From Deltaproteobacteria bacterium (lineage in GTDB: Bacteria; Desulfobacterota; Deferrimicrobia; Deferrimicrobiales; Deferrimicrobiaceae), in assembly GCA_050263095.1 (NCBI GenBank), contig JBLNEW010000012.1:7572-71571 (forward strand): a stretch of DNA of 64,000 bases, in the 5' to 3' direction. Both the position numbers and the translations under genes were made by a program. Below the pieces are notes generated by a model, which searched no databases, had not been told where the DNA came from, and was given only the letters and a program-made list of their open reading frames with translations. Positions 2,994 to 60,842 of this stretch are shown here, one piece after another (the first letter of the stretch is position 1; every line of letters starts with the position of its first letter).

Positions 2994-3938
2994 CTACCGT
3001 TCCGGGTAAGCTGACGAAAGCCGGTCGACCTCCGCCCGGACGGCCTCGCGCAATTCCTTCGGCGCCGTGACTTCCGCCTCTTCGCCGTGCAGAAGGACAA
3101 GCCCCAGGACCTCCTGGAAGCGGGCTTCGGGCAGTTCGAGCACGACCGCCCCGGAAAGCTCCGGCTGCAAGCGCCGGCCCGGGCGCCAGGCCTGCGCCGA
3201 AACCCACCCGGCCTTTCCCCGGGCGAAACGTATTCGCGCGTTCCGCACCTTCCCGCCCCGCAACCCTTTTCGGACCGCGGCGTCCGCGTCGATGCCGACC
3301 TTCGGCGGCGTGAAATTCCGCCCCGTCACCTCGACCCGCCTTATGCTCGAAAGCGGATGACGGAACGCCCTTTTTTGCCTTGGGGAGATCCCTATCAGGT
3401 GCCACGCCCCGCGGTAATAGTGCAGCTTCAGCGGCTCCACCTCCCCGCCGGCGGATTCGCTTCCCTGGCGGGAGTCGAAACGCAGCAGCACCGCCCTGCG
3501 CCGGGTGATCGCACGCAGGAGGTCGAAAAACACCTTGTCAGGCGCATCGCCTCCCCTGTCTGCCTCGAAGGATACCGCCTCCTCCGCGTTCGAAAGCGCG
3601 GTCGCCTTGAACAGCTCGTCGAGCCGGCCGCAAACTTCCGCGGCCTCGTCCCTCAACGGAGGCTTGATCCGCCTGAAGAGGCGCCTGGCGAACAGCAGGG
3701 CTATCACCTCGTCTTTCCGGAAGAAGGCCTGCGGCAGGTAGAACTCGGGATCGCCGTAAACGTACCCCCTGGCGGCGGCGTCGAACTTCAGGGGCGCCTG
3801 GAGCCGATCGCGCAGGAATTCGATGTCCCGCTGGGCGGTCCGCAGCGAAACCCTGAAATGGGCGGCAAGGTCCGCGGACGCCGGGCGGCTCCCCGCGCGG
3901 ATGCGCTCGTCGAGCCACATGACCCGTTCCATCGTCAT
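2994..3938 (-). CDS. WYL-domain transcriptional regulator (N-terminal HTH plus WYL)
   Basis: N-terminal HTH-like segment (LAAHFRVSLRTAQRDIEFL). WYL signature YYRGAWHLIGISPRQKRAFRHPLSSIRRV. A GGAGG RBS lies about 10 nt upstream of ATG 3938. The longer ORF to 4094 has no RBS and overlaps livF. Confidence 0.6.
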   Translation of the reverse strand: MTMERVMWLDERIRAGSRPASADLAAHFRVSLRTAQRDIEFLRDRLQAPLKFDAAARGYVYGDPEFYLPQAFFRKDEVIALLFARRLFRRIKPPLRDEAAEVCGRLDELFKATALSNAEEAVSFEADRGGDAPDKVFFDLLRAITRRRAVLLRFDSRQGSESAGGEVEPLKLHYYRGAWHLIGISPRQKRAFRHPLSSIRRVEVTGRNFTPPKVGIDADAAVRKGLRGGKVRNARIRFARGKAGWVSAQAWRPGRRLQPELSGAVVLELPEARFQEVLGLVLLHGEEAEVTAPKELREAVRAEVDRLSSAYPER

Positions 3939-3939
3939 T

Positions 3940-4662
3940 TCATTCGACCTCCGGCAGGTCGCCCAGGTAGGCCGCCTGCACCCTGGGATCGTTCTGCAGG
4001 TCGGCCGGGTTCCCGTGCAAGACGATCCTTCCCGCCTCCAGCACATATGCCCGATGCGCGACGGACATCGCCATGCATGCGTTTTGCTCGACAAGCAGGA
4101 CGGCGGCGCCGTTCCGGTTGACCTCGCCGATCATCTCGAATATCTCCCTTACGAGCAGCGGGGAAAGACCCATCGAGGGCTCGTCCAGAAGCATAAGGGC
4201 CGGGCCGGCCGCGAGAGCCCTGCCGAGGGCCAGCATCTGCTGCTCCCCGCCCGAGAGAGTGCCCGCCTGCTGGCCGGAACGCTGCGCGAGCCGCGGGAAA
4301 AGCGAGTATACCCTTTCGAGCGATTCCGCCGTCTCCCGCCCCGGCCGCCGCGTGTAGGCGCCCATGTGCAGGTTTTCCCCTACCGTCATGTTTGCGAAGA
4401 TCCCCCGCCCCTCGGGCACGTGGGAAATTCCCATCCTGGCGATCCGGTGTTGCGGAAGTCCCGCCAGGTCCCTGCCGTTGAACTCGATTTTTCCGGAGCG
4501 CGGCGCAAGTACGCCCGAGATCGCCTTCAGTGCGGTTGTCTTCCCCGCTCCGTTGGCCCCGACAAGGGACACGATCTCCCCCGCGCCGACGCTCATGGAT
4601 ACGTCCCGCAGCGCATGAAGATTATCGTGATATACGTTTATATTTTCGATATTTAAAAGCAT
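3940..4662 (-). CDS. livF: Branched-chain amino acid ABC transporter ATP-binding protein LivF
   Basis: Walker A GANGAGKTT, ABC signature LSGGEQQ, Walker B LLLDEP. Typical LivF length (240 aa). Confidence 0.85.
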   Translation of the reverse strand: MLLNIENINVYHDNLHALRDVSMSVGAGEIVSLVGANGAGKTTALKAISGVLAPRSGKIEFNGRDLAGLPQHRIARMGISHVPEGRGIFANMTVGENLHMGAYTRRPGRETAESLERVYSLFPRLAQRSGQQAGTLSGGEQQMLALGRALAAGPALMLLDEPSMGLSPLLVREIFEMIGEVNRNGAAVLLVEQNACMAMSVAHRAYVLEAGRIVLHGNPADLQNDPRVQAAYLGDLPEVE

Positions 4663-23544: not shown

Positions 23545-24193
23545 CGGCGCTCTTCTCGATGAAAACCAGGTTCTGGGTCAGAAAGGGGCCTCCGACCGGC
23601 ATTACCATTCTTCCGCCGTTCCTCAGCTGTCGCAGCAGAGGGGGCGGGATGTGGCCTCCTGCGCATGTGACGATGATCGCGTCGAACGGCGCCTTCTCTT
23701 CCCAGCCGTAATACCCGTCCCCCTGGCGGACGTGGACGTTCGCGAATCCAAGCTCCGAGAGCGTCCTGCGGCTCCCCGCGGCCAGGGACTCGAAGATCTC
23801 CACCGTATAAACTTCGCGCGCTATCCTGGATGCGACCGCCGCCTGGTACCCGGATCCGGTTCCCACCTCGAGCACGCGGTCGGAAGGCTTCAGGCGCAGT
23901 ATCTCGGTCATGAAGCCGACTATGTAGGGCTGGGAGATCGTCTGCCCCTCGCCGATGGGCAGCGGGCGCGGATCGTACGCCCGGGAGCGCATTTCGCGGG
24001 GGACGAAAAGATGGCGGGGAACATCCCGCATCGACTGCAGGACCCGTGGATCGGAGATCCCCTCGCGCTGGATCTGTTCTCCGACCATGGCAAGGCGGGC
24101 GGCAAGATACGGGTCCTCCTTTGCGGCGGAGGGGCTGCCGCCCGCAAACAGCACCAGGATCGACAGGATCGCCGTCCAACGCGGCAAAATCAT
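23483..24193 (-). CDS. pcm: Protein-L-isoaspartate O-methyltransferase with signal peptide
   Basis: TISQPYIV, LEVGTGSGYQAA SAM motif. GGAAGGA RBS before ATG 24193. Confidence 0.8.
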   Translation of the reverse strand: MILPRWTAILSILVLFAGGSPSAAKEDPYLAARLAMVGEQIQREGISDPRVLQSMRDVPRHLFVPREMRSRAYDPRPLPIGEGQTISQPYIVGFMTEILRLKPSDRVLEVGTGSGYQAAVASRIAREVYTVEIFESLAAGSRRTLSELGFANVHVRQGDGYYGWEEKAPFDAIIVTCAGGHIPPPLLRQLRNGGRMVMPVGGPFLTQNLVFIEKSADGSVSQRNVLPVAFVRLLGH

Positions 24194-26604
24194 TTTCCTT
24201 CCTTGCCCTTTTCCGCTTCTTCCTTTTTTACGGCCTCCCGCAGCTCGGATAGCCGTTCCTCGACGAGACGGTTCAGGGTATTTTCGGGATACTTCCCGTC
24301 CGGTCCCGGCTCCCCCGCCGGCATTCCCATGAGTATCCCGATACCCTCCTCCACGTGCTCGATGGCGTGTATGTGGAATTTCCCCTGCCCCACGGCCTCC
24401 ACGACCTCTCTCTTCAACATCAGGTTTCTCGCGTTCCTCAAGGGGATGACGACCCCCTGCTTCCCGGTCAGCCCCCGCAGCCTGCACAGGTCGAAGAAAC
24501 CCTCGATCTTCTCGTTCACTCCGCCTATGGGCTGGACGTCCCCGTTCTGGTCCATGGATCCGGTCACCGCCACGCCCTGCCGGACCGGGACCCCCGATAC
24601 GGCGCTCAAGAGCGCGTAGAGCTCGGCGCAGGTGGCGCTGTCCCCCTCGATCATCCCGTAGAGCTGCTCGAAGGTTATCGAAGCCGACAGGCTTATCGGC
24701 TTCCTGGAAGCGTATTTCCTGCCCAGGTAGTTCGAAAGGATGAGCACAGCCTTCTCGTGGATCTTCCCCGAAAGCTTCGTCTCCCTTTCGATGTTGACCA
24801 CGCCGCTTTTCCCCGCGTAGACCGTCGTGGTGATCCTGGAGGGCTTCCCGAAACTGTGGTCTCCCATATCCAGTACCGCCAGTCCGTTCACCTGTCCCGC
24901 CTTCTCGCCGGACGTCTCAACGATCAGCGTCCCTTCAGCCATCACTTCCCGCGTCCGGTCCTCCATCATTCCGTGCCTGTAGGTCTTCTCGCCCAGTGCC
25001 TTTTCCACGTGCGTCCCGGACACTACGTCGGCGGAGTCCTTCCTGGCCCAGTAATGGGACTCGCGAATCAGGTTCGAGACGTCGCTGAACTTCGAGGAAA
25101 GCTTCTCCTGGTGTTCCGCCAGCCGGGAACCGTACTCCACGACTTTCGCCACGCCGGAAGCGTCGAACGGCAGGAGGCGCTCCTCGCGGATCTTCGTCGA
25201 GACGAACGCGGCATATTTCAGGATGTTCTCGTCCGACCGGTCCATCCGGTTGTCGAAGTCCGCCTTGACCTTGAAAAGCTCCCCGTACTCCTCGTCGAGC
25301 CCGAGGAGCAGGTAATATATCTCCGGGCTTCCGATGAGGATCACCTTCACGTCCAGCGGTATCGGCTCCGGCCTCATCGTCGTCGTCGTGATCAGCCTGT
25401 ACTGCTCCCAGACATCCTCTATCTTCACTTCCCCGTTCTTGATCGCCCGCTTCAGCGCGTCGTAGGAGAACAGGTTCCGCAGAAGATCGAGCGCGTTGAC
25501 GACCAGGTATCCGCCGTTCGCCGCATGGATCGAACCCGCCTTGATCATGGTGAAATCGGTCATCGCGGCGCCGAACTGCAGCTTGTGCTCGACCCTGCCG
25601 AAGAGGTTGTAGTACGTGGGGTTGCTCTCGAAAACGCAGGGGCTGCCCTTCCGGTTTCCGTTGTTCACGAGGACGTTCACCGAATACCGCGTGAAATTCG
25701 GCTCCTGCTTCGGCATCTTGAGGAACGGCAGCGCCGGCGCCGGATTCTCTTCCGGCACCGCCTTGAAGTCCTCGACGTTTTCAAGGACGTCATCTTGAAC
25801 CGCATCCAGGTATGCGAGCAGCTTTTCGTTTTTCGGGTACTTGTTCTTGAGGTCCTCGACAAGGTGCCCGAGGACGGAAAGCGCCGTGTTCCGTTCCAGC
25901 TTCTCCAGCTTCTCCCCGGTCTCCTTTTCCTCCCTCTTGAGCAATCGCAACACGTCGTCCAGCTTTTCCTGGACGTATTTCCCGTTCTCCCTCAGCTCCT
26001 CCTTGCGATTCGCGTCGAAGGAGTTGAACTCCTCCTCGGTAAGAGGCTCGCCGGACTTGCCGATGGCCACCAGCGAGAACCCGCCCATTGCGGTCTTTAC
26101 CTTGAACCCCTTCGATTCGGCCTCGATTTCCAGGGCGTCGAAAAGCTCCTTCTGCCTGCGCTGGACCGCTTCCGTGATGACGCTCTTCTGTTTCTTGTAT
26201 TCCTTCGACTCGAATATCTTGGGTATCTCGTTTTTCAGGTGATCGACGAGCTCCCGCATGTCCTTCTGGAACTCGACCGACCTGCCCGGCTCGAGCCAGA
26301 CAGCGATGGGATCGCCCGCGTCCTTGAAGTTGTGGACGTAGCACCAGTCGGGCGGGACGATTTCCTTCTCCGCTTTCCTGGATATGAACGACCGTATGGC
26401 GGATGTCTTGCCTGTCCCGCTGTCGCCCAGGACGTAGATGTTGAACCCGGCGCTCTGCAGGTTCAGGCCGAAATCGATCGCGTCCAGCGCCCTCTGCTGG
26501 CCGATTATCCCTTCCAGCGGCGGCAGCTCATCGGTTGTCCTGAAAGCGAATATCCCGGGATCGCAACGCTTGCGGAGGTCGTCCGGGCCCAAGGTCCTCG
26601 CCAT
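24190..26604 (-). CDS. Lon-related AAA+ ATP-dependent protease (S16 C-terminal domain)
   Basis: Walker A GDSGTGKTS. C-terminal Lon proteolytic domain (VTGSMDQNGDVQPIGGVNEKIEG). GGAGGGA RBS. Confidence 0.7.
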   Translation of the reverse strand: MARTLGPDDLRKRCDPGIFAFRTTDELPPLEGIIGQQRALDAIDFGLNLQSAGFNIYVLGDSGTGKTSAIRSFISRKAEKEIVPPDWCYVHNFKDAGDPIAVWLEPGRSVEFQKDMRELVDHLKNEIPKIFESKEYKKQKSVITEAVQRRQKELFDALEIEAESKGFKVKTAMGGFSLVAIGKSGEPLTEEEFNSFDANRKEELRENGKYVQEKLDDVLRLLKREEKETGEKLEKLERNTALSVLGHLVEDLKNKYPKNEKLLAYLDAVQDDVLENVEDFKAVPEENPAPALPFLKMPKQEPNFTRYSVNVLVNNGNRKGSPCVFESNPTYYNLFGRVEHKLQFGAAMTDFTMIKAGSIHAANGGYLVVNALDLLRNLFSYDALKRAIKNGEVKIEDVWEQYRLITTTTMRPEPIPLDVKVILIGSPEIYYLLLGLDEEYGELFKVKADFDNRMDRSDENILKYAAFVSTKIREERLLPFDASGVAKVVEYGSRLAEHQEKLSSKFSDVSNLIRESHYWARKDSADVVSGTHVEKALGEKTYRHGMMEDRTREVMAEGTLIVETSGEKAGQVNGLAVLDMGDHSFGKPSRITTTVYAGKSGVVNIERETKLSGKIHEKAVLILSNYLGRKYASRKPISLSASITFEQLYGMIEGDSATCAELYALLSAVSGVPVRQGVAVTGSMDQNGDVQPIGGVNEKIEGFFDLCRLRGLTGKQGVVIPLRNARNLMLKREVVEAVGQGKFHIHAIEHVEEGIGILMGMPAGEPGPDGKYPENTLNRLVEERLSELREAVKKEEAEKGKEGK

Positions 26605-49650: not shown

Positions 49651-50553
49651 ATGAAATCGCCATTCGTCATCTGCGGAGCGACAGGGAACGTGGGGAGGAA
49701 GATCGCCGACATCTTATTGACCGCCGGGGAGCCGGTTCGCGTCATAGGGAGGGAGCGGGTCCGGCTGGGACCCCTCGCCGCCAAGGGTGCGGAGCCGTGG
49801 CCGGGCGACATCGGGGACGCGTCCTTCCTGGCGAAAGCATTCGCAGGGGCCCGCGCGGTGTTCGCCATGATCCCGCCCAAACACGACGCCGCGGACCACA
49901 GGGGCTATCAGAACCGGATCGCGGAAACGGTGGCGGCGGCGATCGCGAAGGCCCGCGTCCCTCGCGTAGTCGCCTTGAGCAGCATCGGGGCGCACCTTTC
50001 GGAGGGATCGGGTCCGATACTGGGACTTCACCATCTCGAGAACAAGCTGGGCGAGCTCCGCGACGCGGCGGCGGTCCACCTGCGGCCCGGCTACTTCATG
50101 GAGAACCACCTCTGGAGCATCTCCGTGATACGCGAACACGGTGTCGCGGGAAGCCCTGTCCGGCCCGACGTCCCGATTCCCATGGTCGCGACGAAGGACA
50201 TTGCGCACGCCGCGTCCCGCCTGCTGCTGGAAGGGACGTTCACCGGGCACGCCGTCCGTTACCTTCTGGGACCGCGCGACCTGACGTTGTCGGAGGCCGC
50301 CGGCATCCTCGGCAGGGCGATCGGGAAGCCGGACCTCCGGTACGTCCAGTTCCCCGAAGAGGAGGCGCGCAAAGCCATGTCCGCGATGGGAATGTCCGCG
50401 AGCGCGGTCGATGCCATGCTCGAGATGCAACGCGGCTTCAACGAGGGGAAAATCCGCCCGACCCGGGATCGGGACGTGGGGAGCACAACGCCTACGACTC
50501 TGGAGGAGTTCGCCGAAACCGTTTTCGCCGCGGCGTACCGCAGGGCGGCCTGA
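49651..50553 (+). CDS. NmrA-like NAD(P)-binding protein
   Basis: CGATGNVG Rossmann motif. NmrA/atypical SDR family length. Confidence 0.65.
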   Translation: MKSPFVICGATGNVGRKIADILLTAGEPVRVIGRERVRLGPLAAKGAEPWPGDIGDASFLAKAFAGARAVFAMIPPKHDAADHRGYQNRIAETVAAAIAKARVPRVVALSSIGAHLSEGSGPILGLHHLENKLGELRDAAAVHLRPGYFMENHLWSISVIREHGVAGSPVRPDVPIPMVATKDIAHAASRLLLEGTFTGHAVRYLLGPRDLTLSEAAGILGRAIGKPDLRYVQFPEEEARKAMSAMGMSASAVDAMLEMQRGFNEGKIRPTRDRDVGSTTPTTLEEFAETVFAAAYRRAA

Positions 50554-50587
50554 ATCGAAGTCGTGATGGCATAGAAGCGAAGCGATC

Positions 50588-51259
50588 ATGTGCGGGCGAT
50601 TCACGCTGTTCGAATCCGGCCGGATCCTTTCGAAGATGTTCGACGCCCCCCTTTCGGACGCCCCTGCCTCGAGATACAACATAGCCCCGTCCCAGACGGT
50701 CCTTGTGGTCCGTCGCGCCCAGGGATCGGGACGGCGCGAGTTCGCCCTCGTCCGGTGGGGGCTTGTCCCTTCCTGGGCCGGGGACCCGGCGATCGGAAAC
50801 CGGCTCATCAACGCCCGCTCCGAGACCGCGCACGAAAAACCCGCGTTCCGGGCCGCCTACAGGAGCCGGCGCTGCCTTATCCCGACGAGCGGTTTCTACG
50901 AATGGCGGCGGCTCGAGCGGGCGAAGCAGCCGTACTTCATCCGCATGACTGACGGACGGCCCTTCGCCTTCGCCGGATTGTGGGAGCATTGGGAAGGGCC
51001 GGACGGAAACGCGATCGAATCGTGCGCGATCCTGACGACCGGATCGAACCGGGTCCTCTCGCCCATCCACGACCGGATGCCAGCGATCATCGGCCCCGGG
51101 GACTACGACCGCTGGCTCGATCCCGCGGACCGAAAGCCGGAATCGGCGAGCCCCCTTCTTGCGCCGTACGATCCCGATGAAATGACATCCTACCCGGTGA
51201 GCGCCCGCGTCAACAGCCCGGCGATCGACGACAAGGCGTGCATAGCCTCTCTCTCGTAG
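50588..51259 (+). CDS. yedK: SOS response-associated peptidase (SRAP/YedK/HMCES family) abasic-site processing protein
   Basis: Starts MCGRF (catalytic Cys2). Conserved SRAP motifs (NARSET, FYEW). Immediately upstream of lexA. Confidence 0.8.
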   Translation: MCGRFTLFESGRILSKMFDAPLSDAPASRYNIAPSQTVLVVRRAQGSGRREFALVRWGLVPSWAGDPAIGNRLINARSETAHEKPAFRAAYRSRRCLIPTSGFYEWRRLERAKQPYFIRMTDGRPFAFAGLWEHWEGPDGNAIESCAILTTGSNRVLSPIHDRMPAIIGPGDYDRWLDPADRKPESASPLLAPYDPDEMTSYPVSARVNSPAIDDKACIASLS

Positions 51260-51265
51260 CCGACG

Positions 51266-51295
51266 GTCAGCAGGTATGTTAGCATACCCTCATGG
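51266..51295. promoter_or_regulatory. Putative LexA operator (GGTATGTTAGCATACC) overlapping the lexA start
   Basis: 16-bp core GGTATG-N4-CATACC, 4 nt before the lexA ATG. Related to the 30-bp palindromes at 51913 and 58076. Confidence 0.55.
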
Positions 51296-51903
51296 GCGCT
51301 CCACTCACCCGGTCGCAGCGGCAGGTCCTGGCGTTCATCCGGGAGTTCATCGCGCGCCACAGGTTCGCCCCCACGGCCAGGGAGATCGCCGCGCGCTTCG
51401 GCATCGCCGAGAAGAACGGCTTCTACTACCTGGACGTCCTCGAGCGCAAGGGGTTTTTAAGGCGCGGAAAGCACCAGCCCCGGCGGATCGAGCTCCTTGG
51501 AGAGCCCCTGCCCCGGACTCCGGCGCGGGTGCCCGTCCTGGGCCGCGTCCCGGCAGGCAACCCCCTGGAAGCGTTAGAGGAGATCGAGGAAGAGCTGTTC
51601 CTGGACCCCTCCCTGCTGGGAGAAGGGGAAGTCTTCTCCCTGCGCGTCAAGGGGGACAGCATGGAAGGCGCCCACATCTGCGACGGGGATTACGTCCTGG
51701 TCAGGGCGCAGCAGGACGCCGAGGGAGGGGAAATCGTCGTGGCGGTGATCGACGGAGATGCCACGGTCAAGAGGTTCCGCCGGCAGCGCGGCAAGGTAAA
51801 GCTCGAGGCGGCCAACCCGTCCTACCCGCCGATCGCCGTCCCCGCCGACTCGCCCCATTTCCGCATCGCAGGCAAGGTCATCGGGGTCTTCCGGAAAATG
51901 TAG
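51292..51903 (+). CDS. lexA: LexA repressor
   Basis: N-terminal winged HTH. Ala-Gly cleavage-site region. S24 peptidase Ser...Lys dyad (GDSMEG ... KRF). Confidence 0.85.
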   Translation: MGAPLTRSQRQVLAFIREFIARHRFAPTAREIAARFGIAEKNGFYYLDVLERKGFLRRGKHQPRRIELLGEPLPRTPARVPVLGRVPAGNPLEALEEIEEELFLDPSLLGEGEVFSLRVKGDSMEGAHICDGDYVLVRAQQDAEGGEIVVAVIDGDATVKRFRRQRGKVKLEAANPSYPPIAVPADSPHFRIAGKVIGVFRKM

Positions 51904-51912
51904 GCCAGGCCG

Positions 51913-51942
51913 CCATATAGGTATGTTAACATACCTATATGG
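51913..51942. promoter_or_regulatory. Perfect 30-bp palindrome CCATATAGGTATGTTAACATACCTATATGG (putative LexA operator) overlapping the downstream start codon
   Basis: The reverse complement is identical. The ATG of the next gene (51939) lies inside the right arm. Confidence 0.6.
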
Positions 51943-52595
51943 GCAATCCGGCCGATATCGAGCGCGCCTCCTTCATCTGCCTCTCCCCGCCTCCGGGCAG
52001 GATGGCGGGGATCTTCGGAGACGGGGCCTGCCCCCTGGCGCTGCGGGCGCTGGCCCGGCCGCTGCTGCTCGGGGAAGCCGTCGTCGCCGTGGACGGGGGG
52101 AACCGGTTCGACCCGTACGAGATCGGCAAGGCGGCCAGGGCGCTGGGGGGAGACGGGAAGGACGCCCTCGAAAGGATCCGCGTCTCCCGGGCGTTCACCT
52201 GCCACCAGATGGAGGCGCTCCTGGTCCGCAAGCTGCCTTCCGCCCTGGCACGGTACGACGCCCGGCTTGCCCTGGTCCTGGGCCTGCCGGAGACGTTCAC
52301 GGACGCCGACGTCCCGTACGCGGAGGCTTGCCGCATCTTCCGTAGCTGCCTGTCCGCGCTGCGGCGGATCGCCTGGAAGGGAACCCGCATAGTGCTTGTC
52401 GGCAAGGCGGAAGCCGCAAGGCGGGGCGCGGGATATCGTTCCCCGGCGCCCGCCGCCGAAAACCGCGACGGGTTTTTCCGGCACCTCGCCCGGACGGCCG
52501 ATCCCGTGCTCCTTCTGCACCGGGAAGAAAACGGGCTGCGGTGGGAGCTGCGCCGGAGAGGCGCTTCCCCTGCCCGCCTGCCGGGAGGACGATGA
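51939..52595 (+). CDS. Putative SOS-induced RecA-fold-like protein (ImuA/SulA-like, hypothetical)
   Basis: 218-aa ORF directly after lexA with the operator at its start. Degenerate P-loop-like VAVDGGNRFD. Function inferred from context only. Confidence 0.4.
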   Translation: MGNPADIERASFICLSPPPGRMAGIFGDGACPLALRALARPLLLGEAVVAVDGGNRFDPYEIGKAARALGGDGKDALERIRVSRAFTCHQMEALLVRKLPSALARYDARLALVLGLPETFTDADVPYAEACRIFRSCLSALRRIAWKGTRIVLVGKAEAARRGAGYRSPAPAAENRDGFFRHLARTADPVLLLHREENGLRWELRRRGASPARLPGGR

Positions 52596-52889
52596 ATGGG
52601 CCGCACGGTGCTCCCGTTCACCCAGGAGCTGTACCGCGAGGAGGAATCCTGGAAATCGTTCCGGCGTGCGCTGCGCCGCGAGGACCGGGAGCTCTTCGAC
52701 GAGCTGTTCGCCGCCGCCCGCTACCACACGGCCGCCTGCACCTGCTCTGGTCGGGCCGTCCCCTTCGAGGCGATCCTGATGAGCATCCTGCTCGAGGAGC
52801 GGCGGGCGGTGCGCGAACTCTCCCGCCGGCTGGACGAGCTGGCGCGCCGGCTGATGGAGGGGGAACCGAAATGCCCAGGCGGCAAATGA
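52596..52889 (+). CDS. Hypothetical small protein, translationally coupled to the preceding gene
   Basis: 97 aa. Its start abuts the preceding stop. Charged/helical. Confidence 0.3.
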   Translation: MGRTVLPFTQELYREEESWKSFRRALRREDRELFDELFAAARYHTAACTCSGRAVPFEAILMSILLEERRAVRELSRRLDELARRLMEGEPKCPGGK

Positions 52890-52968
52890 AGTTTCACTGA
52901 ATGCCTTCCGATAAAACTGTTGATAAGTTCCGGCACGCGACGCAGATCCTATTTGGGGAAGGATACCC

Positions 52969-54297
52969 GTGGATTCGTTTTCATCCCTGATAACAAAAGC
53001 GGCACTGCTGTTCCTGGGCATCGCCCTGTTCGCCGAGTACCTGTTCCGGAGACGCAAATTACTGGCCGAGTCCGGAAAGAACAGGTCCAAACAGCAAAAA
53101 CTCATTGAATTTTCGAAGGAATTGAAATTACTTAAGAAGAACCTTGCCCGAAAGACCGAAATCGCCGACCAGATTCCCCTTATCATCAAGAAGCTGACTG
53201 AGAATCTTAGTCAAAGCTCCCTTCCCGCAATGGCCGTCCGGTCCGCCAAGGAGCTGTTCCATGCGGAGAAGGCGGGATTCTTCACCCCGGTCAACGGCAC
53301 CGCCGAATATACCCTGGAGGTCGGCGCCGGCTTCCCCCCCGATTGGCAGGGCAAGATAAGAATCGACGCCGACGAGGGAATCCTGGGCATGGCGCTCCAG
53401 AAGAAGGTGGTGGTCTCCCGGATGGATCCGCTCTCATTCGCCGGCAGAAGATCGTCCAGCCGGTCGCTCGAGCAGCTTGGGGCAATCCCCGACTTCGTAG
53501 CGCCGGTTTTCGGCGTTTCCGGAACGATAGGCGCCCTTGTCATCGCCGGTTGTCCGTTCCCCCTCGAAGAGGAGCGGAAATACATGTCGATGCTCGCCGA
53601 TCTGCTCTCCACCGCCATGCAGAAGGCGACCCTTATCGATTCGAGCATATCCAGGTCCTGGGTCGATCACCTGACCGGCGTATCCAACAGGCTGCATTTC
53701 CTGCAGAGGTTCGAGAGCGAAGTCCGGCGCTCCGAGAACTATCGGCAAGCGCTGGCCCTGTTCATGTTCGACATAGACGAGTTCAAAAAGATCAACGACA
53801 CGTACGGACATGCCGCAGGAGACGTCGTGCTGAAGAAAATGGTGGAAATCGTCAGGCAGAACACCCGGAGCTCCGACCTTATCGGGCGATTCGGGGGCGA
53901 CGAGTTCATGGTGCTGATGATGTCTTCCAACGCGGAACAGTCGCGCCATTACGCCGAGAAGCTGCGTGAGATCATCTCCGCGACGGATATCCGGATTCCG
54001 GGACAGGACGCTCCCGTCCGCCTGACGATCAGCGGCGGATTGGCGATGTGGCCGGTCGACGGGCAGTCGACCACCGAATTGATGCAGTGCGCCGATGTCG
54101 CCCTCTACGAAGCGAAACGCAAAGGAAGGAACAACATCGTTCTCATCCAATCCCTGGGCCTTGACGGCGCGATCCTCCACGGGCAGGGATCGGAGCCGGC
54201 GAAGCAGGTCCCGGCAGCCGGCGATAATGCGGCAGGCATCGAGGAAAAGGATGGCGTCCTGGAGCTGTGCGACGACGAATGGGAATCGCTGGCATGA
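52969..54297 (+). CDS. Membrane-anchored GAF-GGDEF diguanylate cyclase
   Basis: N-terminal TM. GAF-like region. GGDEF active site RFGGDEF with RxxD I-site. The 5' part has markedly lower GC. Confidence 0.75.
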   Translation: MDSFSSLITKAALLFLGIALFAEYLFRRRKLLAESGKNRSKQQKLIEFSKELKLLKKNLARKTEIADQIPLIIKKLTENLSQSSLPAMAVRSAKELFHAEKAGFFTPVNGTAEYTLEVGAGFPPDWQGKIRIDADEGILGMALQKKVVVSRMDPLSFAGRRSSSRSLEQLGAIPDFVAPVFGVSGTIGALVIAGCPFPLEEERKYMSMLADLLSTAMQKATLIDSSISRSWVDHLTGVSNRLHFLQRFESEVRRSENYRQALALFMFDIDEFKKINDTYGHAAGDVVLKKMVEIVRQNTRSSDLIGRFGGDEFMVLMMSSNAEQSRHYAEKLREIISATDIRIPGQDAPVRLTISGGLAMWPVDGQSTTELMQCADVALYEAKRKGRNNIVLIQSLGLDGAILHGQGSEPAKQVPAAGDNAAGIEEKDGVLELCDDEWESLA

Positions 54298-56969
54298 AGA
54301 ACCTGTCCAGGTTCAGGAACAGCATCGCGATTCCCATCGTCTTCATCCTGCTGATACTGACCGCCGGGATACTTCTGGCGGGCTTTCAGATCAACAGGAA
54401 CGTTTTTTACAACGTTTTCGAAGAGAGGGAGAAAAGCAAGGCGAAAAACATACACCTGACCATCGAATCCATGCTGTCCAGCGAAGAAAAAAGGCTCAAC
54501 AGCCTTGCGAAGGTGCTGAAAAGGGATACGGACATCTCGTATTCGCTTTACCACTACAAGCTTGCCGGCGGCGACTTGAGACCGTTGAAATCGGTCATGA
54601 ACCAGCTGTACGCGCAGATGAACCTGCCTTTGTTCATAATGGCGGACAGGAACGGGAACATCCTCTACCGGACGGACAAATCGAAGGAACAGGAAAAGCT
54701 CCTCTCGTTCGACGCGTTTCACGAGGCGTTGAAGGGAAAGCAGGTCATCACCGCATCCAGGTCTCCCAGCGGGTGGGGTCTGCGGGCAGTCGTCCCGATC
54801 CATGCCTTCGAGAATCGCGAGCCGTCGGGAATCATGATTCTCGGAAGCAGGATCGACGACGGGTTCGCGAAAAAGATCGCAAGCGAAACCGGCAGCCAGG
54901 TCTTCATCGCTACGCCGGAAGGCGTGATCGCCGGTTCGTACAAGACGCTGGACTCTTCGGCGATGGACCTGTCCCTCGTGAACAGAAGCCTGGCGGACAA
55001 AAAGCCCCTGTTCTTCGCGGACCGGCGCAATTTCCGATCCTACACTTACGTCCCGATCAGAATAATCGACGAGGAATTCTGCCTCGTCGTCGAGACGGAC
55101 ATAAGCGTCGTGAAGGAACTGTTGAGCAAATACAGGATGGAGATGTTCCAATGGGGGCTGATCATCTTCCTGTGCGTCGCATCGATAGGCGCCGCCTTCA
55201 CTTTCACGATCATCCATCCGCTGAACGAACTGCAGGAAAAAGCCCGCGGGGTCGTCAGGGAATATTCCGGGGACGATTCGAAAGCCGCCTCCAGGGGAAA
55301 CGAGATATCGACGCTGGTGCGGGCGTTCAACCTGATGGTGGAAACCATCAGGGACCACATTTCCGAGCGGAAAAAAACCGAAGAGGCGCTGCGTGAGACC
55401 GGACGAACGCTCCAGGCGCTGATCGAAGCATCTCCGCTGGCCATCATCGTCACCGACGCATCCGGCGATATAAAGGTATGGAATCCCGCCGCCGTGCACA
55501 TCTTCGGATGGAGCGGGAACGAGGCGATCGGCCGAGGGAACCCCATCTGCGCGAAAGAGGGGAATTCCGAGCTCGGCGCCATCCTGACGCTGACGTTGAA
55601 CGGCGAGAAAATCTCGAACATCGAGATTCAATGCAAGGGGAAGAACGATTCCGCGATCGACCTTTCATATTACGGCGCCCCGCTCGTCGACGGCGACGGC
55701 CGGATCATCGGCATGACGGCGATCATGGCCGACATAACGGAGTCCAAACAGGCGCGGGATGCCCTGCGGCGAAGCGAGGAGCAGCTGAGGCAGTCCCAGA
55801 AAATGGAAGCGATCGGAAAACTTGCAGGCGGGGTCGCGCACGACTTCAACAATCTCCTATCGGTGATCACCGGCTACAGCGAACTGCTGATGGGCAGGCT
55901 CGGGAAGGACGGCCAGGGCTTTCGGGAAATCGAGGAGATAAACAAGGCGGGGGAACGCGCGGCCGCGCTGACCCACCAGCTGCTCGCTTTCAGCCGCCGC
56001 CAGGTCCTCAACCCGAAAACGATCCGGATGAACGATGTCGTGTCGAGCCTGGGAAAGATGCTCCGGCGCCTGATCGGCGAGAATATCGAGCTGGCGACGT
56101 ACGTCGACGCGGACCTGTGGACGGTGCGCGCGGACCCGATACAGATCGACCAGATCGTCCTCAATCTTGCGGTCAACGCCCGCGACGCGATGCCGCGCGG
56201 CGGAAAGCTCTCCATTTCGACTTCCAATGTCGAAATCGATCTTCCGCTCGTCGAAGGCCCGCTGAAAATACCGGCGGGACAATACGTCGTCCTCGAAGTG
56301 ACCGACACCGGATGCGGAATGGACGAGCACACCGTCGCCCGCATCTTCGAGCCGTTTTTCACCACGAAGAAGCACGGGAAAGGCACGGGCCTTGGACTTG
56401 CGACCGTCTACGGGATAGTAAAGCAAAGCGGCGGATACATCCGCGTCACCAGCAACCCCGGCAGCGGTACAAGCTTTATCGTCTACCTCCCCCGCGACAA
56501 TAGCGCCGAGACGGTGGACATGATCGAATTGTTCGCACCGGGGGAATCGCCGTGCGTCGAAACCATCCTCCTGGTAGAAGACGAGGATACCGTGCGGAAA
56601 CTGGCGTGCGAAACATTGCGGGGGTACGGATACACCGTTCTCGAAGCCTCCAATGGACCGGAGGCAGTTTCGGCCAGCGCGAAGTTCGACGGGACCATCC
56701 ACCTGCTGATAACCGACGTTGTCATGCCGGGGATGAGCGGGCTCGAGTTGTCGCAAAACCTTAAAAAAAGCCGTCCCGGGATGCCGGTGCTTTTCATGTC
56801 GGGGTATTCGGAGGAGGTGCTGTCGCGGGTCGGGTTCATGGGGCCCGGGGAAGCTTTCTTCCAGAAGCCGGTCACCCCTGCGAGGCTCTACGCAAAGATT
56901 CGCGAAATACTTCGGCTCACTTCTCCACAATCACATGCTGCTGGCGCATCCCGCCCACCACTAATGTAA
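54294..56969 (+). CDS. Hybrid sensor histidine kinase (periplasmic sensor, HAMP, PAS x2, HisKA, HATPase, REC)
   Basis: ATGA overlap with the GGDEF gene. H-box AHDFNNLLSVI. C-terminal receiver (LLVEDED...LLITDVVMP). Lower GC in the sensor half. Confidence 0.75.
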   Translation: MKNLSRFRNSIAIPIVFILLILTAGILLAGFQINRNVFYNVFEEREKSKAKNIHLTIESMLSSEEKRLNSLAKVLKRDTDISYSLYHYKLAGGDLRPLKSVMNQLYAQMNLPLFIMADRNGNILYRTDKSKEQEKLLSFDAFHEALKGKQVITASRSPSGWGLRAVVPIHAFENREPSGIMILGSRIDDGFAKKIASETGSQVFIATPEGVIAGSYKTLDSSAMDLSLVNRSLADKKPLFFADRRNFRSYTYVPIRIIDEEFCLVVETDISVVKELLSKYRMEMFQWGLIIFLCVASIGAAFTFTIIHPLNELQEKARGVVREYSGDDSKAASRGNEISTLVRAFNLMVETIRDHISERKKTEEALRETGRTLQALIEASPLAIIVTDASGDIKVWNPAAVHIFGWSGNEAIGRGNPICAKEGNSELGAILTLTLNGEKISNIEIQCKGKNDSAIDLSYYGAPLVDGDGRIIGMTAIMADITESKQARDALRRSEEQLRQSQKMEAIGKLAGGVAHDFNNLLSVITGYSELLMGRLGKDGQGFREIEEINKAGERAAALTHQLLAFSRRQVLNPKTIRMNDVVSSLGKMLRRLIGENIELATYVDADLWTVRADPIQIDQIVLNLAVNARDAMPRGGKLSISTSNVEIDLPLVEGPLKIPAGQYVVLEVTDTGCGMDEHTVARIFEPFFTTKKHGKGTGLGLATVYGIVKQSGGYIRVTSNPGSGTSFIVYLPRDNSAETVDMIELFAPGESPCVETILLVEDEDTVRKLACETLRGYGYTVLEASNGPEAVSASAKFDGTIHLLITDVVMPGMSGLELSQNLKKSRPGMPVLFMSGYSEEVLSRVGFMGPGEAFFQKPVTPARLYAKIREILRLTSPQSHAAGASRPPLM

Positions 56970-57333
56970 CCGACGTGCCGGGCTTAAGCTTGCCGTAGGG
57001 ATTTCTGAACATGAGGGAGTGAACGGCCGCCTCCTCCGGATTCCTTATTTCCGCCAGTCGGCCGATTCGCCGCAGGATCATGAGGTAATACTTTCCGCCG
57101 GTTCCCTCGTCGATCAGGTAGGTGTCGGCAGGGTCCGCGGCGATCTCCTTCATTCCGTGCAGCCGGACTTGGACGTCCACTATCTCCTTGCTCGGGGCAA
57201 GCCTGCAATAGACCACTTCGATCCTCGGTGCATCCGCCGGCTTCGGGACGTCCACCGGCGGTCGAACGGCTTCCCTGCGCGAACACGCCTGAAGAAGCGC
57301 AAGCAATACGGCGAACAGGATTAATTTCCGCAT
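56917..57333 (-). CDS. Hypothetical lipoprotein
   Basis: Lipobox LLALLQAC. No known domain. Its 3' end overlaps the convergent kinase gene. Confidence 0.3.
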   Translation of the reverse strand: MRKLILFAVLLALLQACSRREAVRPPVDVPKPADAPRIEVVYCRLAPSKEIVDVQVRLHGMKEIAADPADTYLIDEGTGGKYYLMILRRIGRLAEIRNPEEAAVHSLMFRNPYGKLKPGTSVTLVVGGMRQQHVIVEK

Positions 57334-57432
57334 CTTCTTCCTGACTCCGCGCCCCCCGAATCGTTCATGCCGACTGCAATATATCACGGAAGGAGGATTC
57401 CTCTCCGCGGGGGCCGGGAGCGGCCCCGCCGA

Positions 57433-57981
57433 TCAGCCTTCCTTGAATTCCGGGCTTGCCTTGGCGATCGCCCACGCGGCGATCGTCATCCCGTCCCATA
57501 TCGCGCCGGCGCCGATTCGAGCGTCGATCTCGCCGCGCGTCGCCCGGACGATCTCGAACTCCTCCGTCTCGTCGGGCGCCTCCCCTACGTACCGCAATCC
57601 CCTGGCGACATAGACCCGGCACATCTCGTCGGTGACGCCGTTGTAGGGATTGAACTCCCCGACCAGGACCAGCCTCTCCGCCGAATAGCCTGTCTCCTCC
57701 GCCAGCTCGCACCCGGCCGTTTCGACATGGTTCGACCCGTCCTTCACGCTCCCGCAGGGAAACTCGACGCTCTCCCTGTCCATAAGGTAGCGATACTGGT
57801 TCACCAGCAGCACTTTCCCGTCGTCCAGAACCGGGACGACCATGGATGAGCCGTTCGTATGGACGTAATGATACTCGCCGGGCTTCCCCGACGGCAGCTC
57901 TACGGCGTCCCGCTTGTACGTCCACCAGGGGTTCCTGAGCACGACAGACTCCGCAAGCTTCTTCCACGATTTAAGCGCCAT
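57433..57981 (-). CDS. NUDIX hydrolase (ADP-ribose pyrophosphatase-like)
   Basis: Nudix box GSVKDGSNHVETAGCELAEETG. Divergent from the polB-like gene. Confidence 0.75.
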   Translation of the reverse strand: MALKSWKKLAESVVLRNPWWTYKRDAVELPSGKPGEYHYVHTNGSSMVVPVLDDGKVLLVNQYRYLMDRESVEFPCGSVKDGSNHVETAGCELAEETGYSAERLVLVGEFNPYNGVTDEMCRVYVARGLRYVGEAPDETEEFEIVRATRGEIDARIGAGAIWDGMTIAAWAIAKASPEFKEG

Positions 57982-58075
57982 TGCCGCAGGCCCCTTCCCT
58001 CGTTCGATTCCCTCTTCCGGTTATCCGATTATATGCAAAACCGCAACCCGGGTTGCCCGAAGAGGCGACGACGGG

Positions 58076-58105
58076 TCATATAGGTATGCTAACATACCCA
58101 TATGG
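58076..58105. promoter_or_regulatory. Third copy (27 of 30 positions) of the palindromic putative LexA operator, overlapping the polB-like start codon
   Basis: TCATATAGGTATGCTAACATACCCATATGG. The ATG at 58102 lies inside the right arm. Confidence 0.55.
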
Positions 58106-60342
58106 GCGACCCGCTCACCCCGTCATGGGACATGGCCGGATGGGTGTTCGACGTGATCCCCGCGCCGGGCGGTATGACCGTGTGGTTCCGCTCCGAGTCC
58201 GGGGAAACGACGGCGCTGTCCGCCCCTTTTCGCCCCTCCTTCGTCCTGGCGGGGGAAACGCTGAATGAGACGACCCTTCGGGCGGCTTCGGCCCGCTGGA
58301 ACTGCTCACTTGCGCGCGGGGAAGGCGCCGAGTTCTTCTCCGGCAGGGCGGTTCCCGCCTGGACTTTCACGGTCCCCGCGCCTGCCCTCCTGGGGCCTAC
58401 CGTCCGGAAAGCCGAGAAGGCGTTCGGGCCGGAGGCGCTGTTCAACGCCGACATCGCCCCGGAGCAGCAGTTCGCCTGCGCCACCGGGCTCTACCCGCTC
58501 TCGCGCGCCCGCGTGGAATGCGACGGCGACGGGACGATCGTTTCCTCGCGGGTCCTCGACTCCCCGTGGGATATCGACTCGCCCCTCCCCTTCTTTTCCA
58601 CCGCGCTCCTTCGCGCGGAAGGCAAGGGGCACCCGGAGCACGGGAGGGTCCGCCCGCTGGAGCTCACCGCCTGCGGCGTCACGCACGTTCTTTCGTGGGA
58701 AGACGGGGCGGGGTTCCTCCGGGAGCTATTGCGGCTCCTTGAAAGGGCCGATCCCGACCTGCTAGTCACGGAGTACGGGGACGATTACCTGCTGCCGCGC
58801 CTGCTCGGCCTGGCCGGCCGGCTGCGGGTCCCCCTTCCGCTGGGGCGCCCGTCGCGGCGCCCGGGGGCGGACGCCGCGGTCCGCCGCGCCAGGGAGCGGT
58901 CGTACCTTTCCTACGGCCGCGTGGTCTTTCTCGCCGCCCCGCACACGCTTTCCGGACGGTGGCACGTGGACGCGCGCAACTCCTTCCTATTCGGGGAGAC
59001 CGGCCTGCCGGGCCTGATCGAGCTTGCGCGCCTCTCCGGCATCCCCCTCCAGCGCCTGGCGCGGACCTCGCCGGGCACGGCCATATCCGCGATGCAGGTC
59101 GCCACCGCCCTGCGCCGCGGGATCCTGGTGCCCTACAAGAAGCGGGAGCCCGAGGAGTTCAAGTCCGGGGCCGAACTGGTCGTCACCGACAAGGGGGGGC
59201 TCACGTACCTGCCGCGCCCAGGGCTGCACGAGAACGTGGGCGAGCTCGACTTCGCCTCGATGTACCCGTCCCTCATGGACCGCTACAACATCTCCCCCGA
59301 AACGATCAACTGCGGGTGCTGCGGCGGCCATCCGCCCTACGGCCGCCCCGGCGTCCCCGTCCCGGAGATCGGCGCCCGCACGTGCGTCCGCCGAAGGGGG
59401 CTCGTTCCCGATACGATCGCCCCGATCCTGGCCAAGCGGCGGCTTCTCAAAAATCGGCAGGCGGCCTGCGCGCATCCCGAAGAGCGCGAGCTGTTCAGGA
59501 AACGGCAGACGGCGCTCAAATGGCTCCTCGTGGTCTGCTTCGGGTTCCTGGGATACCGCAACGCCCGGTTCGGCCGGATCGAGGCGCACGAGGCGGTAAC
59601 CGCCTGGGGGCGGGAGAAGCTCCTTGCCGCCAAGGAGACCGCGGAGAGCCTCGGCTTTCTCTTCCTGCACGGGCTGACCGACGCCGTCTGGGTCAAGCGG
59701 GAAGGCGCGTCCGAGGAGGATTACCGGGAGCTCGCCGAACGGATCACGGAGAAGACCGGAATGCCGATCGCGCTGGAGGGGGTCTACCGGTGGCTGATGT
59801 TCCTCCCCTCCAAGCGCAATCCCAAGGTGGCCGTCCCGAACCGGTTCGCGGGAGCGTTCTCCACCGGGGCGATCAAGGCGCGCGGGATCGCCATGCGCCG
59901 GTCCGACACCCCGCCGGTGGTCGCGGCCCTCCAGCGGGAGCTTTTGGAGCGGATGGCCGCGGCGGAAACGGCCGCGGACCTCAAGGCCATGCTGCCGGAG
60001 CTTCGCGGGATCACGGAGCGCGCCGTCGCCGGGCTTTCCGAGGGGCGCATCCCGCCCGAGGCGCTGGCCGTCGCGCGGCGCCTTTCCAAGGCGCCAGAGC
60101 AGTACGTCGCCGACACCGCGGCCGCCGCGGTCACCCGGGAGCTGTGCGGGCGCGGCGTGACGCTGCGGCCCGGATCCAAGATCCGGTACCTGCTTGCCGA
60201 CGGTAAAGGGCGGGCGATGGGCTTCCTGGACGGGAACGAGACGCCGGATTTCGCGCGGTACGAGGAGATGCTGCGGGAGGCGGAAGACGAGCTGCTCGGG
60301 CTTGTTCGGGAGCATGACCGATGCTTCTTCGGGAGCGAATGA
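58102..60342 (+). CDS. polB: Family-B DNA polymerase, Pol II-like, with divergent catalytic motifs
   Basis: Co-linear by eye with E. coli Pol II. Motif A DFASMYPS is intact. Motif B reads KWLLVVCFGFLGY (canonical KxxxNSxYG). Motif C reads HGLTDA (canonical YGDTDS). The exo II region reads YGDDYL (canonical NxxxFD). Confidence 0.65.
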   Translation: MGDPLTPSWDMAGWVFDVIPAPGGMTVWFRSESGETTALSAPFRPSFVLAGETLNETTLRAASARWNCSLARGEGAEFFSGRAVPAWTFTVPAPALLGPTVRKAEKAFGPEALFNADIAPEQQFACATGLYPLSRARVECDGDGTIVSSRVLDSPWDIDSPLPFFSTALLRAEGKGHPEHGRVRPLELTACGVTHVLSWEDGAGFLRELLRLLERADPDLLVTEYGDDYLLPRLLGLAGRLRVPLPLGRPSRRPGADAAVRRARERSYLSYGRVVFLAAPHTLSGRWHVDARNSFLFGETGLPGLIELARLSGIPLQRLARTSPGTAISAMQVATALRRGILVPYKKREPEEFKSGAELVVTDKGGLTYLPRPGLHENVGELDFASMYPSLMDRYNISPETINCGCCGGHPPYGRPGVPVPEIGARTCVRRRGLVPDTIAPILAKRRLLKNRQAACAHPEERELFRKRQTALKWLLVVCFGFLGYRNARFGRIEAHEAVTAWGREKLLAAKETAESLGFLFLHGLTDAVWVKREGASEEDYRELAERITEKTGMPIALEGVYRWLMFLPSKRNPKVAVPNRFAGAFSTGAIKARGIAMRRSDTPPVVAALQRELLERMAAAETAADLKAMLPELRGITERAVAGLSEGRIPPEALAVARRLSKAPEQYVADTAAAAVTRELCGRGVTLRPGSKIRYLLADGKGRAMGFLDGNETPDFARYEEMLREAEDELLGLVREHDRCFFGSE

Positions 60343-60407: not shown

Positions 60408-60842
60408 ATGAAAGCGTTACTTGTCGGGACGCTGCTGGCAGCGCTCATGATGCAGCCCGTCGCCGGGTCCTGCGGCGGCGACCTGGACAGTTTCATCGGA
60501 AACCTGAACGTTCAGGCCAGGGCGGACCTGCCGGGCTTCAAGGTCAAGCTGTCGGCGCAGTTCGGCATTCCGGTGCCGCAGGTGGAAGCGGTCATCGCAA
60601 ATGTGCAGACGCCGGGGGACGCATACATGGTGCTGCGGGTCGGGCAGGTCGCCGCGCAGCCCAGGGAAGTGGTCCTGGACGAGTACCGGGCGCACAAGGG
60701 CAAGGGATGGGGCGTGATCGCGAAGAACCTCGGCATAAAGCCCGGCTCGCGGGAGTTCCATGAACTAAAAAAGGGGTTCGACGGCGGCTCCGGCAAGGGA
60801 CAGGGGAAGGGTAAAGGCAAGGGGAAAGGGCGGGGCAAATAG
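60408..60842 (+). CDS. Secreted hypothetical protein with a C-terminal Gly-Lys repeat tail
   Basis: Signal peptide. C-terminal GSGKGQGKGKGKGKGRGK. Confidence 0.4.
   Translation: MKALLVGTLLAALMMQPVAGSCGGDLDSFIGNLNVQARADLPGFKVKLSAQFGIPVPQVEAVIANVQTPGDAYMVLRVGQVAAQPREVVLDEYRAHKGKGWGVIAKNLGIKPGSREFHELKKGFDGGSGKGQGKGKGKGKGRGK

Follow-up and report, generated by a model that had tools for sequence, protein, structure and literature searches.

A candidate LexA operator at the start codons of lexA and PolB2 mutasome genes in a Deferrimicrobiaceae bacterium

What is the function of a palindrome that recurs, in a fixed position, at the start codons of lexA and of DNA polymerase genes? This question is raised by a 64,000-nucleotide (nt) stretch of DNA from Deltaproteobacteria bacterium (family Deferrimicrobiaceae; assembly GCA_050263095.1, contig JBLNEW010000012.1, positions 7,572 to 71,571 of the forward strand), referred to here as the window. 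Three copies of a palindrome with the core GGTATG-N4-CATACC lie there at the starts of lexA, of a 218-amino-acid (aa) gene identified below as iRadA, and of PolB2, a family-B DNA polymerase gene. A preliminary description of this DNA had taken them for an operator rather than the terminus of a mobile element, and for a candidate lineage-specific LexA box. Our analysis suggested that the 16-bp palindrome is very likely the operator of the LexA encoded at 51292-51903, and that it would also serve as the core promoter of the lexA, iRadA-PPB2 and PolB2 units. The most probable reading is a LexA site that is new to the literature.

The three copies were re-read from the window sequence, and their coordinates and sequences were all as first reported (Table 1). 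Copy 2 is a perfect 30-bp palindrome, copy 3 is identical to it at 27 of 30 positions, and copy 1 consists of the 16-bp core, located within the 32 bp that separate the stop codon of SRAP from the ATG of lexA. The pattern GGTATG-N4-CATACC had three exact matches in the window versus none in 100 dinucleotide-preserving shuffles, so chance is excluded. A 16-mer search with up to three mismatches found no extra site in the window. The placement on start codons was also correct: the ATGs at 51292, 51939 and 58102 each start 3 nt past the end of a core, and no earlier start codon is present in any of the three open reading frames (ORFs). The right arm of copy 2 takes in the iRadA start codon, and that of copy 3 the PolB2 start codon. 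The 30-bp length held only in part. It is exact in copy 2, but the unit conserved in relatives is just the 16-bp core, strictly GTATG-N4-CATAC. The outer arms (CCATATA and TATATGG) are often, not always, palindromic in relatives, and the flanks of the lexA copies behind SRAP are non-symmetric.

Related loci were collected by three routes, namely a LexA-protein scan of a genome collection (4 loci, including one unrelated Firmicute), exact-protein look-ups and an exact-16-mer scan of metagenomes. LexA homologues of 72-95% identity came from metagenome-assembled genomes (MAGs) named Candidatus Deferrimicrobiota (candidate phylum MBNT15) or Deltaproteobacteria. In every related locus collected, the motif stood immediately before lexA, iRadA or PolB2. 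Sites were found in 16 distinct lexA promoters (LexA 67-100% identical), 6 iRadA promoters and 3 PolB2 promoters, and the site end was nearly always 3 nt before the ATG. The lexA site of copy 1 recurred in loci L178, L154 and L142. Orthologous iRadA sites were present in L010, L154, L178, L142 and L186, and orthologous PolB2 sites in L001/L005 and L186. A palindromised weight matrix was built from 19 distinct sites, in which positions -7 to -3, +3, +5, +6 and +7 of the 16-bp dyad are invariant, and was scanned over 236.7 kb of DNA of this lineage. The promoter sites scored 21-33 bits (29.9, 33.0 and 29.9 bits for copies 1, 2 and 3) and a degenerate lexA site in L003 scored 12.7 bits; nothing in the 236.7 kb reached 10 bits outside the start-codon sites of lexA, iRadA and PolB2. 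The looser pattern GTAT-N6-ATAC was likewise confined to the promoters of these three genes in 198 kb scanned.

The exact 16-mer had 52 matches in the metagenome collection. Nine of them were on contigs of 63-69% guanine plus cytosine (GC), and all nine were located before lexA (6: L140, L167, L175, L179, L181 and L184) or iRadA (3: L142, L154 and L178). Seven of the nine are distinct, as L167/L179 and L140/L181 are duplicate contigs. The flanks of the other 43 matches were unrelated, and their contigs had 25-57% GC. An exact-16-mer scan misses variants with CTAA or TTAG centres or TGTATG arms, which is probably why no PolB2 sites were recovered by this route. The regulon seen so far in the fetched loci and the window contains lexA and the mutasome genes only. 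No recA, uvrA, ruvAB, dinB or umuDC was found in the fetched loci or in the window, where Pfam was run on 20 of the larger ORFs in the first 39 kb and on the cassette, with some smaller ORFs unscanned. The presence of cassette sites only, both among the metagenome matches and in the 236.7 kb, hints at a small regulon.

Viral contigs were searched separately with the 14-base pattern GGTATGNTANCATACC, which gave at least 120 matches. Among the 120 IMG/VR matches listed (loci L014-L133, such as L016 4524-4539 and L020 6995-7010), about 70% were copies of a single conserved sequence of low GC (31-43%), TGAACGTAAAGGTATGTTAGCATACCCACACTATAT, in either orientation; many came from marine samples. The variable bases coincide with what look like wobble positions in the frame GGT ATG CTA ACA TAC CTN TAC GTT, so TGAACGTAAAGGTATGTTAGCATACCCACACTATAT is probably a conserved protein-coding stretch of phages, unrelated to the high-GC operator.

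The number of sites tracked the structure of the operon. Where lexA, iRadA, PPB2 and PolB2 are contiguous (L008 and L187), there is one operator site. Two sites are present where PolB2 is separated by a kinase gene (L005), and L186, in which iRadA is set apart from lexA and PolB2 from PPB2, has three, as does the window. Each separated unit thus keeps its own copy. The inserted genes differ: only the kinase in L005, SnoaL and PBP in L186, and none in L008 and L187.

Three similar palindromes within 7 kb, two of which (copies 2 and 3) bracket a block with inserted genes, could also mark the termini of a mobile element, or belong to a dispersed repeat family like the repetitive extragenic palindromic (REP) sequences or miniature inverted-repeat transposable elements (MITEs). 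We give this explanation hardly any weight. No transposase or integrase was found, and there were no other copies in the 64 kb or in the 236.7 kb. In many genomes, every copy keeps its register with a start codon of lexA, iRadA or PolB2, whatever lies between them, and the sole low-GC family with the motif is the unrelated phage coding stretch. A REP/MITE repeat or mobile-element terminus was rejected on the matrix scan, and the earlier choice of an operator was upheld: the motif is found at lexA and damage-tolerance genes, nowhere else in the 236.7 kb, and it co-varies with a residue of LexA.

This residue is the first of recognition helix 3, which begins AEKNGFYY in the window LexA. The LexA proteins fell into two classes at this position, GIAEKNGF versus GIAVKNGF, and the residue (Glu40 in the window LexA) aligns with Ser39 of E. 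coli LexA. LexA of the Glu type was accompanied by GTATG-TTAA-CATAC in 13 promoters, including L189, whose LexA has 73% identity to that of the window. LexA of the Val type was accompanied by GTATAGTAnTATAC in 3 promoters (L008, L009 and L187; the L187 LexA has 83% identity). The dyad centre is 11 nt from the ATG in both variants. Both share the outer GTAT/ATAC and differ at positions -8, -3 and -2 and their mirror positions. The rule that the motif follows the residue was predicted from the first Val-type loci, L008 and L009, which carry the palindrome TATGTATAGTACTATACATA, together with the list of LexA proteins, and was then checked on new loci. P0011 was of the Val type despite 83% identity to the window LexA, and its operator was GTATAGTAATATAC; P0035 was of the Glu type though just 73% identical, and its operator was GTATGTTAACATAC. 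Residue and motif matched without exception over the 16 lexA promoters (13 Glu, 3 Val). The motif type follows the helix residue, not the overall identity of LexA.

The same sites could instead be the operator of another dimeric regulator, encoded elsewhere, that governs lexA and the mutasome genes. In PolB2 cassettes of other phyla, the repressor is a different one or is missing, and the window itself contains a gene for a regulator with WYL and WCX domains (2994-4094, minus strand). WYL regulators mediate LexA-independent damage responses in some bacteria, and some of them control phage-defence islands. No palindrome copy was seen near the WYL gene. The site is always located at the start of lexA itself, the hallmark of autoregulation; the inner bases vary in step with the LexA recognition-helix residue; and no other regulator gene is conserved beside the cassette across the loci. 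These observations make another regulator improbable. Position, exclusivity and co-variation together support the proposed lineage-specific LexA box, to which LexA is predicted to bind.

How would LexA act at this position? Each half-site (GGTATG) would be read by one winged helix-turn-helix (HTH) domain of the LexA dimer, with Glu40 at the start of helix 3 reading the inner bases. Counted from the A of the ATG (+1), TG is found at -15/-14 in the Glu-type sites, followed by the hexamer TAACAT or TAGCAT at -12 to -7; TGnTAACAT, in the right half and centre of the palindrome, resembles an extended -10 element. In Val-type sites, the hexamer at -12 to -7 is TACTAT, TAGTAT or TAATAT, and a TAnnAT hexamer is found there in both classes. 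A GGAG, GAGG or AGGA core was present at -17 to -4 in none of the 6 operator genes versus 33 of 51 neighbouring genes. From the extended -10 at 7 nt and this lack of a Shine-Dalgarno sequence we infer leaderless transcripts. As the last T of TGnTAACAT is at -7, transcription would start at, or a few bases from, the start codon. LexA on this site would then shut RNA polymerase out from both the -10 element and the start site. After DNA damage, RecA would stimulate LexA to cleave itself, and lexA (autoregulation) would be derepressed together with the genes for the three subunits of the PolB2 translesion mutasome. In this scheme, damage induction, the start of transcription and binding by LexA are all predicted from the sequence. 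We lean towards leaderless mRNAs and occlusion of the -10 element and start site by LexA, with less confidence than we hold for the operator itself.

The element might also be only a strong promoter or start-site element of leaderless genes, with no repressor and an incidental symmetry. TGnTAACAT followed by 6 nt and the ATG is a good geometry for a leaderless promoter. The cassette repressor genes of Nitrospira sp. NS4 and of a Manganitrophaceae MAG have TTGACA-17-TAACAT/TAATGT 6-8 nt before the ATG without the present palindrome; by this geometry, leaderless expression may be general to PolB2 cassettes. Against a promoter without a repressor, the left half-site, which has no promoter role in this orientation, is conserved equally, with positions -7 to -3 invariant in the 19 sites. 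The Val-type variant alters both halves symmetrically, and no other gene in the 236.7 kb has the element. A promoter alone is therefore a very improbable explanation of the palindrome.

We consider it just as improbable that the palindrome acts chiefly as RNA, whether as a hairpin for processing or attenuation or as a block to translation in which read-through transcripts have their AUG sequestered. With the iRadA AUG in its stem, copy 2 forms a 13-bp hairpin of -28.6 kcal/mol (z = -4.8), and copy 3 folds at -19.6 kcal/mol (z = -2.4), but the fold of copy 1 was no better than that of shuffled sequence (z = 0.04). Conservation is limited to the 16-bp core, and the stem length varies. There was no relevant Rfam match. 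No T-run follows any copy and none was listed by the terminator scan, and an intrinsic terminator was rejected. If the transcripts are leaderless, the left arm would not be transcribed from these promoters. An RNA role could be at most secondary, for example in silencing iRadA translation on read-through from lexA. In such a transcript (region 51900-51955), the hairpin of the 30-nt palindrome would bury the AUG, and iRadA would be translated only from its own transcript.

Several observations weigh against LexA as the ligand of an operator-promoter, or narrow what can be drawn from it. The Glu/Val co-variation may be a single split of two clades and effectively one event, not 16. In the MAG CAYILU01, lexA genes of both the Glu type and the Val type were found, and a genome may have more than one LexA. 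Three sites are off the pattern: the spacing is 5 nt in L167, it is 6 nt with a degenerate left half in L003, and the right half of the L186 lexA site is weaker. The motif may serve as the general SOS box of the genome, or be specific to a LexA dedicated to the cassette. As to the promoter, the Val-type sites have no TG, a simple sigma-70 consensus scan of 50400-58400 found no -35/-10 pair, and the putative promoter assignment draws solely on the extended -10 reading.

The two lexA genes of CAYILU01 are on different contigs. L002 (CAYILU010000156.1) has a Glu-type lexA with the operator GGTATGTTAACATACC, and L188 (CAYILU010000261.1) a Val-type lexA with the operator GTATAGTAATATAC. They represent either a pair of paralogous LexA/PolB2 circuits within one genome or a bin that mixes two strains. 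A bolder scenario, which we regard as rather unlikely at present, is that the LexA of this phylum became, or duplicated into, a dedicated switch for the archaeal-derived PolB2 mutasome. A single substitution in the recognition helix, Val for Glu40, would have shifted its target from GTATG-TTAA-CATAC to GTATAG-TA-CTATAC, and the two types might coexist as orthogonal paralogous circuits, each driving leaderless transcripts from an operator-embedded promoter. If true, this would be a natural one-residue example of LexA motif divergence after duplication. LexA is a standard model for the co-evolution of a transcription factor and its binding motif. The two natural variants, one helix-3 residue apart and with operators that differ at the inner bases, are a ready-made specificity experiment. 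The candidate operator also adds a LexA motif for the uncultured candidate phylum MBNT15/Deferrimicrobiota, and it is apparently fused to a leaderless promoter. It leaves the general picture of the SOS response unchanged.

The genes under the putative operator are damage-tolerance genes, those of the PolB2 mutasome (Table 1). In the window LexA, the Ala-Gly cleavage site and the catalytic Ser and Lys align with E. coli LexA. The protein is complete, and a RecA-triggered response is therefore plausible. The SRAP gene directly upstream has no operator copy of its own in the weight-matrix scan. The 218-aa gene had been called imuA-like. ImuA identity was rejected: its RadA/Rad51 fold, the gene order and the published accounts of this operon (PMC11791011, PMC4104785) favour iRadA. 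The protein has no Pfam match and only a weak RadA match in NCBIfam; its AlphaFold model (pLDDT 86.5) gave RadA/Rad51 ATPase cores as the best Foldseek matches (E about 1e-10), and its P-loop is degenerate (FGDGACP, without Lys-Ser/Thr). PPB2 starts with MGRTVLPF, and the MGRT N-terminus is known for PPB2 (PMC11791011). It has its own GGAGG Shine-Dalgarno sequence, as a gene internal to the operon that is co-transcribed with iRadA. The gene first labelled polB-like indeed encodes a family-B polymerase, specifically PolB2. Its motif A (DFASMYPS) is intact, its motif C is LTD for DTD, the Exo II Asp position is Leu, and no exonuclease Pfam domain was detected in it. The first Asp of DxD is missing in most PolB2 sequences (PMC11791011). 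The 218-aa gene, the DUF8156 gene and the polymerase thus belong to the known bacterial iRadA-PPB2-PolB2 mutasome operon. In bacteria, this operon has the order iRadA-PPB2-PolB2, at times with interspersed genes, and lexA and SRAP are enriched nearby (PMC11791011, PMC4104785). The window keeps this order, with three genes (GGDEF, kinase and NUDIX; 52969..57981) unrelated to the mutasome inserted between PPB2 and PolB2. They split the operon, and PolB2 therefore carries its own putative operator-promoter.

Table 1. Palindrome copies and genes of the lexA-PolB2 cassette in the window
Feature	Position	Strand	Description
SRAP (YedK-like abasic-site peptidase)	50588..51259	+	PF02586, 261 bits; directly upstream of lexA
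Candidate operator copy 1	51273..51288		16-bp core GGTATGTTAGCATACC; TGtTAGCAT at 51277-51285, extended -10-like; before lexA
lexA, 203 aa	51292..51903	+	PF01726 winged-HTH, PF00717 S24 peptidase; TIGR00498, 196 bits versus cut-off 111
Candidate operator copy 2	51913..51942		CCATATAGGTATGTTAACATACCTATATGG; core GGTATGTTAACATACC at 51920-51935; -10-like hexamer TAACAT at 51927-51932; before iRadA
iRadA, 218 aa	51939..52595	+	RecA/RadA fold; first gene of PolB2 mutasome operon
PPB2, 97 aa	52596..52889	+	Pfam DUF8156/arCOG07300; PF26485 on the identical gene in L010
GGDEF (diguanylate cyclase) gene	52969-54297	+	Pfam
dCache/PAS hybrid histidine kinase gene	54267-56969	+	Pfam
NUDIX hydrolase gene	57433-57981	-	Pfam
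Candidate operator copy 3	58076..58105		TCATATAGGTATGCTAACATACCCATATGG; core GGTATGCTAACATACC at 58083-58098; -10-like hexamer TAACAT at 58090-58095; before PolB2
PolB2, 746 aa	58102..60342	+	archaeal-type family-B polymerase; Pfam, NCBIfam

Is the motif a known LexA box? The E. coli, Gram-positive, alphaproteobacterial, Geobacter, Bdellovibrio, Verrucomicrobia, Leptospira and Bacteroidetes boxes were all absent at these promoters, and the motifs quoted in PMC8565304 and PMC4951493 differ from GGTATG-N4-CATACC, in agreement with the mismatch to known boxes claimed at first. Seventeen LexA motifs have been counted, each defined for one clade (PMC8565304). Like the E. coli CTGT-N8-ACAG and Gram-positive GAAC-N4-GTTC boxes, the 16-bp dyad is suited to a LexA dimer. 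Like classical SOS boxes, it is found in the lexA promoter and before a damage-inducible polymerase, overlapping the putative core promoter, and the window LexA has the canonical domains and cleavage residues of the classical systems. Unlike classical boxes, its sequence matches none of the published motifs checked, its regulon as seen here is limited to lexA and the PolB2 mutasome, and it is located 3 nt from the ATG of genes without a Shine-Dalgarno sequence. A further comparison is with Geobacter sulfurreducens, whose LexA box is cited in PMC8565304 as GGTT-N10-AACC. The two share the outer GGT...ACC bases, and the lineage is near Desulfobacterota; compared by this cited consensus, the present motif is of 16 bp (GGTA-N8-TACC) rather than 18 bp and its inner bases differ. 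The Geobacter pattern was absent at these promoters. In Geobacter, lexA is autoregulated and recA is outside LexA control (PMC4951493), which is a precedent for a small regulon.

The cassette itself resembles the PolB2 mutasome operon as presented by Timinskas et al. 2025 (PMC11791011) and Makarova et al. 2014 (PMC4104785) in gene content and order, the inactivated RadA, the MGRT PPB2, a PolB2 without the first Asp of DxD, lexA at the head, an adjoining SRAP gene and occasional interspersed genes. The bacterial PolB2 mutasome was acquired from archaea, and in these papers its damage regulation was deduced from gene neighbourhood alone. Their LexA passages do not mention a binding site (the word "operator" was not searched for), and the word "promoter" is absent from PMC11791011. 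The gene context, including the linkage to lexA and SRAP, is thus known, and the cis element appears to be new. It would be the first concrete candidate cis element that ties the bacterial SOS repressor to the PolB2 mutasome.

Two other well-known systems are similar in part. The lexA2-imuA-imuB-dnaE2 cassette of the Pseudomonas putida type is headed by lexA and regulates itself through a LexA box that differs from the main SOS box of the host. In both cases, a lexA gene heads a self-contained cassette for a translesion polymerase. Unlike that cassette, with its C-family DnaE2 and Y-family ImuB, the present one has the B-family PolB2, and its accessory proteins are unrelated in sequence. The cI gene of phage lambda, expressed from PRM, encodes a repressor of the S24 family on a leaderless mRNA, and its promoter is overlapped by its own operators. 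The window lexA would share the S24-family repressor gene, the operator over the promoter and the leaderless mRNA (inferred here). It differs from the lambda system, which belongs to a phage and has three tandem operators, positive and negative autoregulation, and another DNA-binding domain.

PolB2 cassettes of other phyla were also compared (regions L190 4300-4423, L192 4300-4428 and L191 5040-5160). The Nitrospira sp. NS4 cassette has a repressor with HTH_3 and S24 domains, that of the Manganitrophaceae MAG a canonical LexA, and that of an Armatimonadota MAG no repressor. The motif was absent from all three cassettes, and it was rejected as a general property of PolB2 cassettes. Other palindromes were present in two of the regions, CACAA-N9-TTGTG in L190 and GGCTCT-TGAC-AGAGCC in L192.

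Two further genes of the window were recorded. Just past PolB2, an ORF of 144 aa (60408-60842, plus strand) encodes a protein with a hydrophobic N-terminus and a C-terminal GKGQGKGKGKGKGRGK tail, without a family match. L010 has this ORF as well, but L005 and L008 lack it at the corresponding position. Far upstream, and unrelated to the operator, a gene at 24190-26604 (minus strand) encodes a LonB/LonC-like AAA protease with AAA_32, LonB lid, LonC helical and Lon_C domains.

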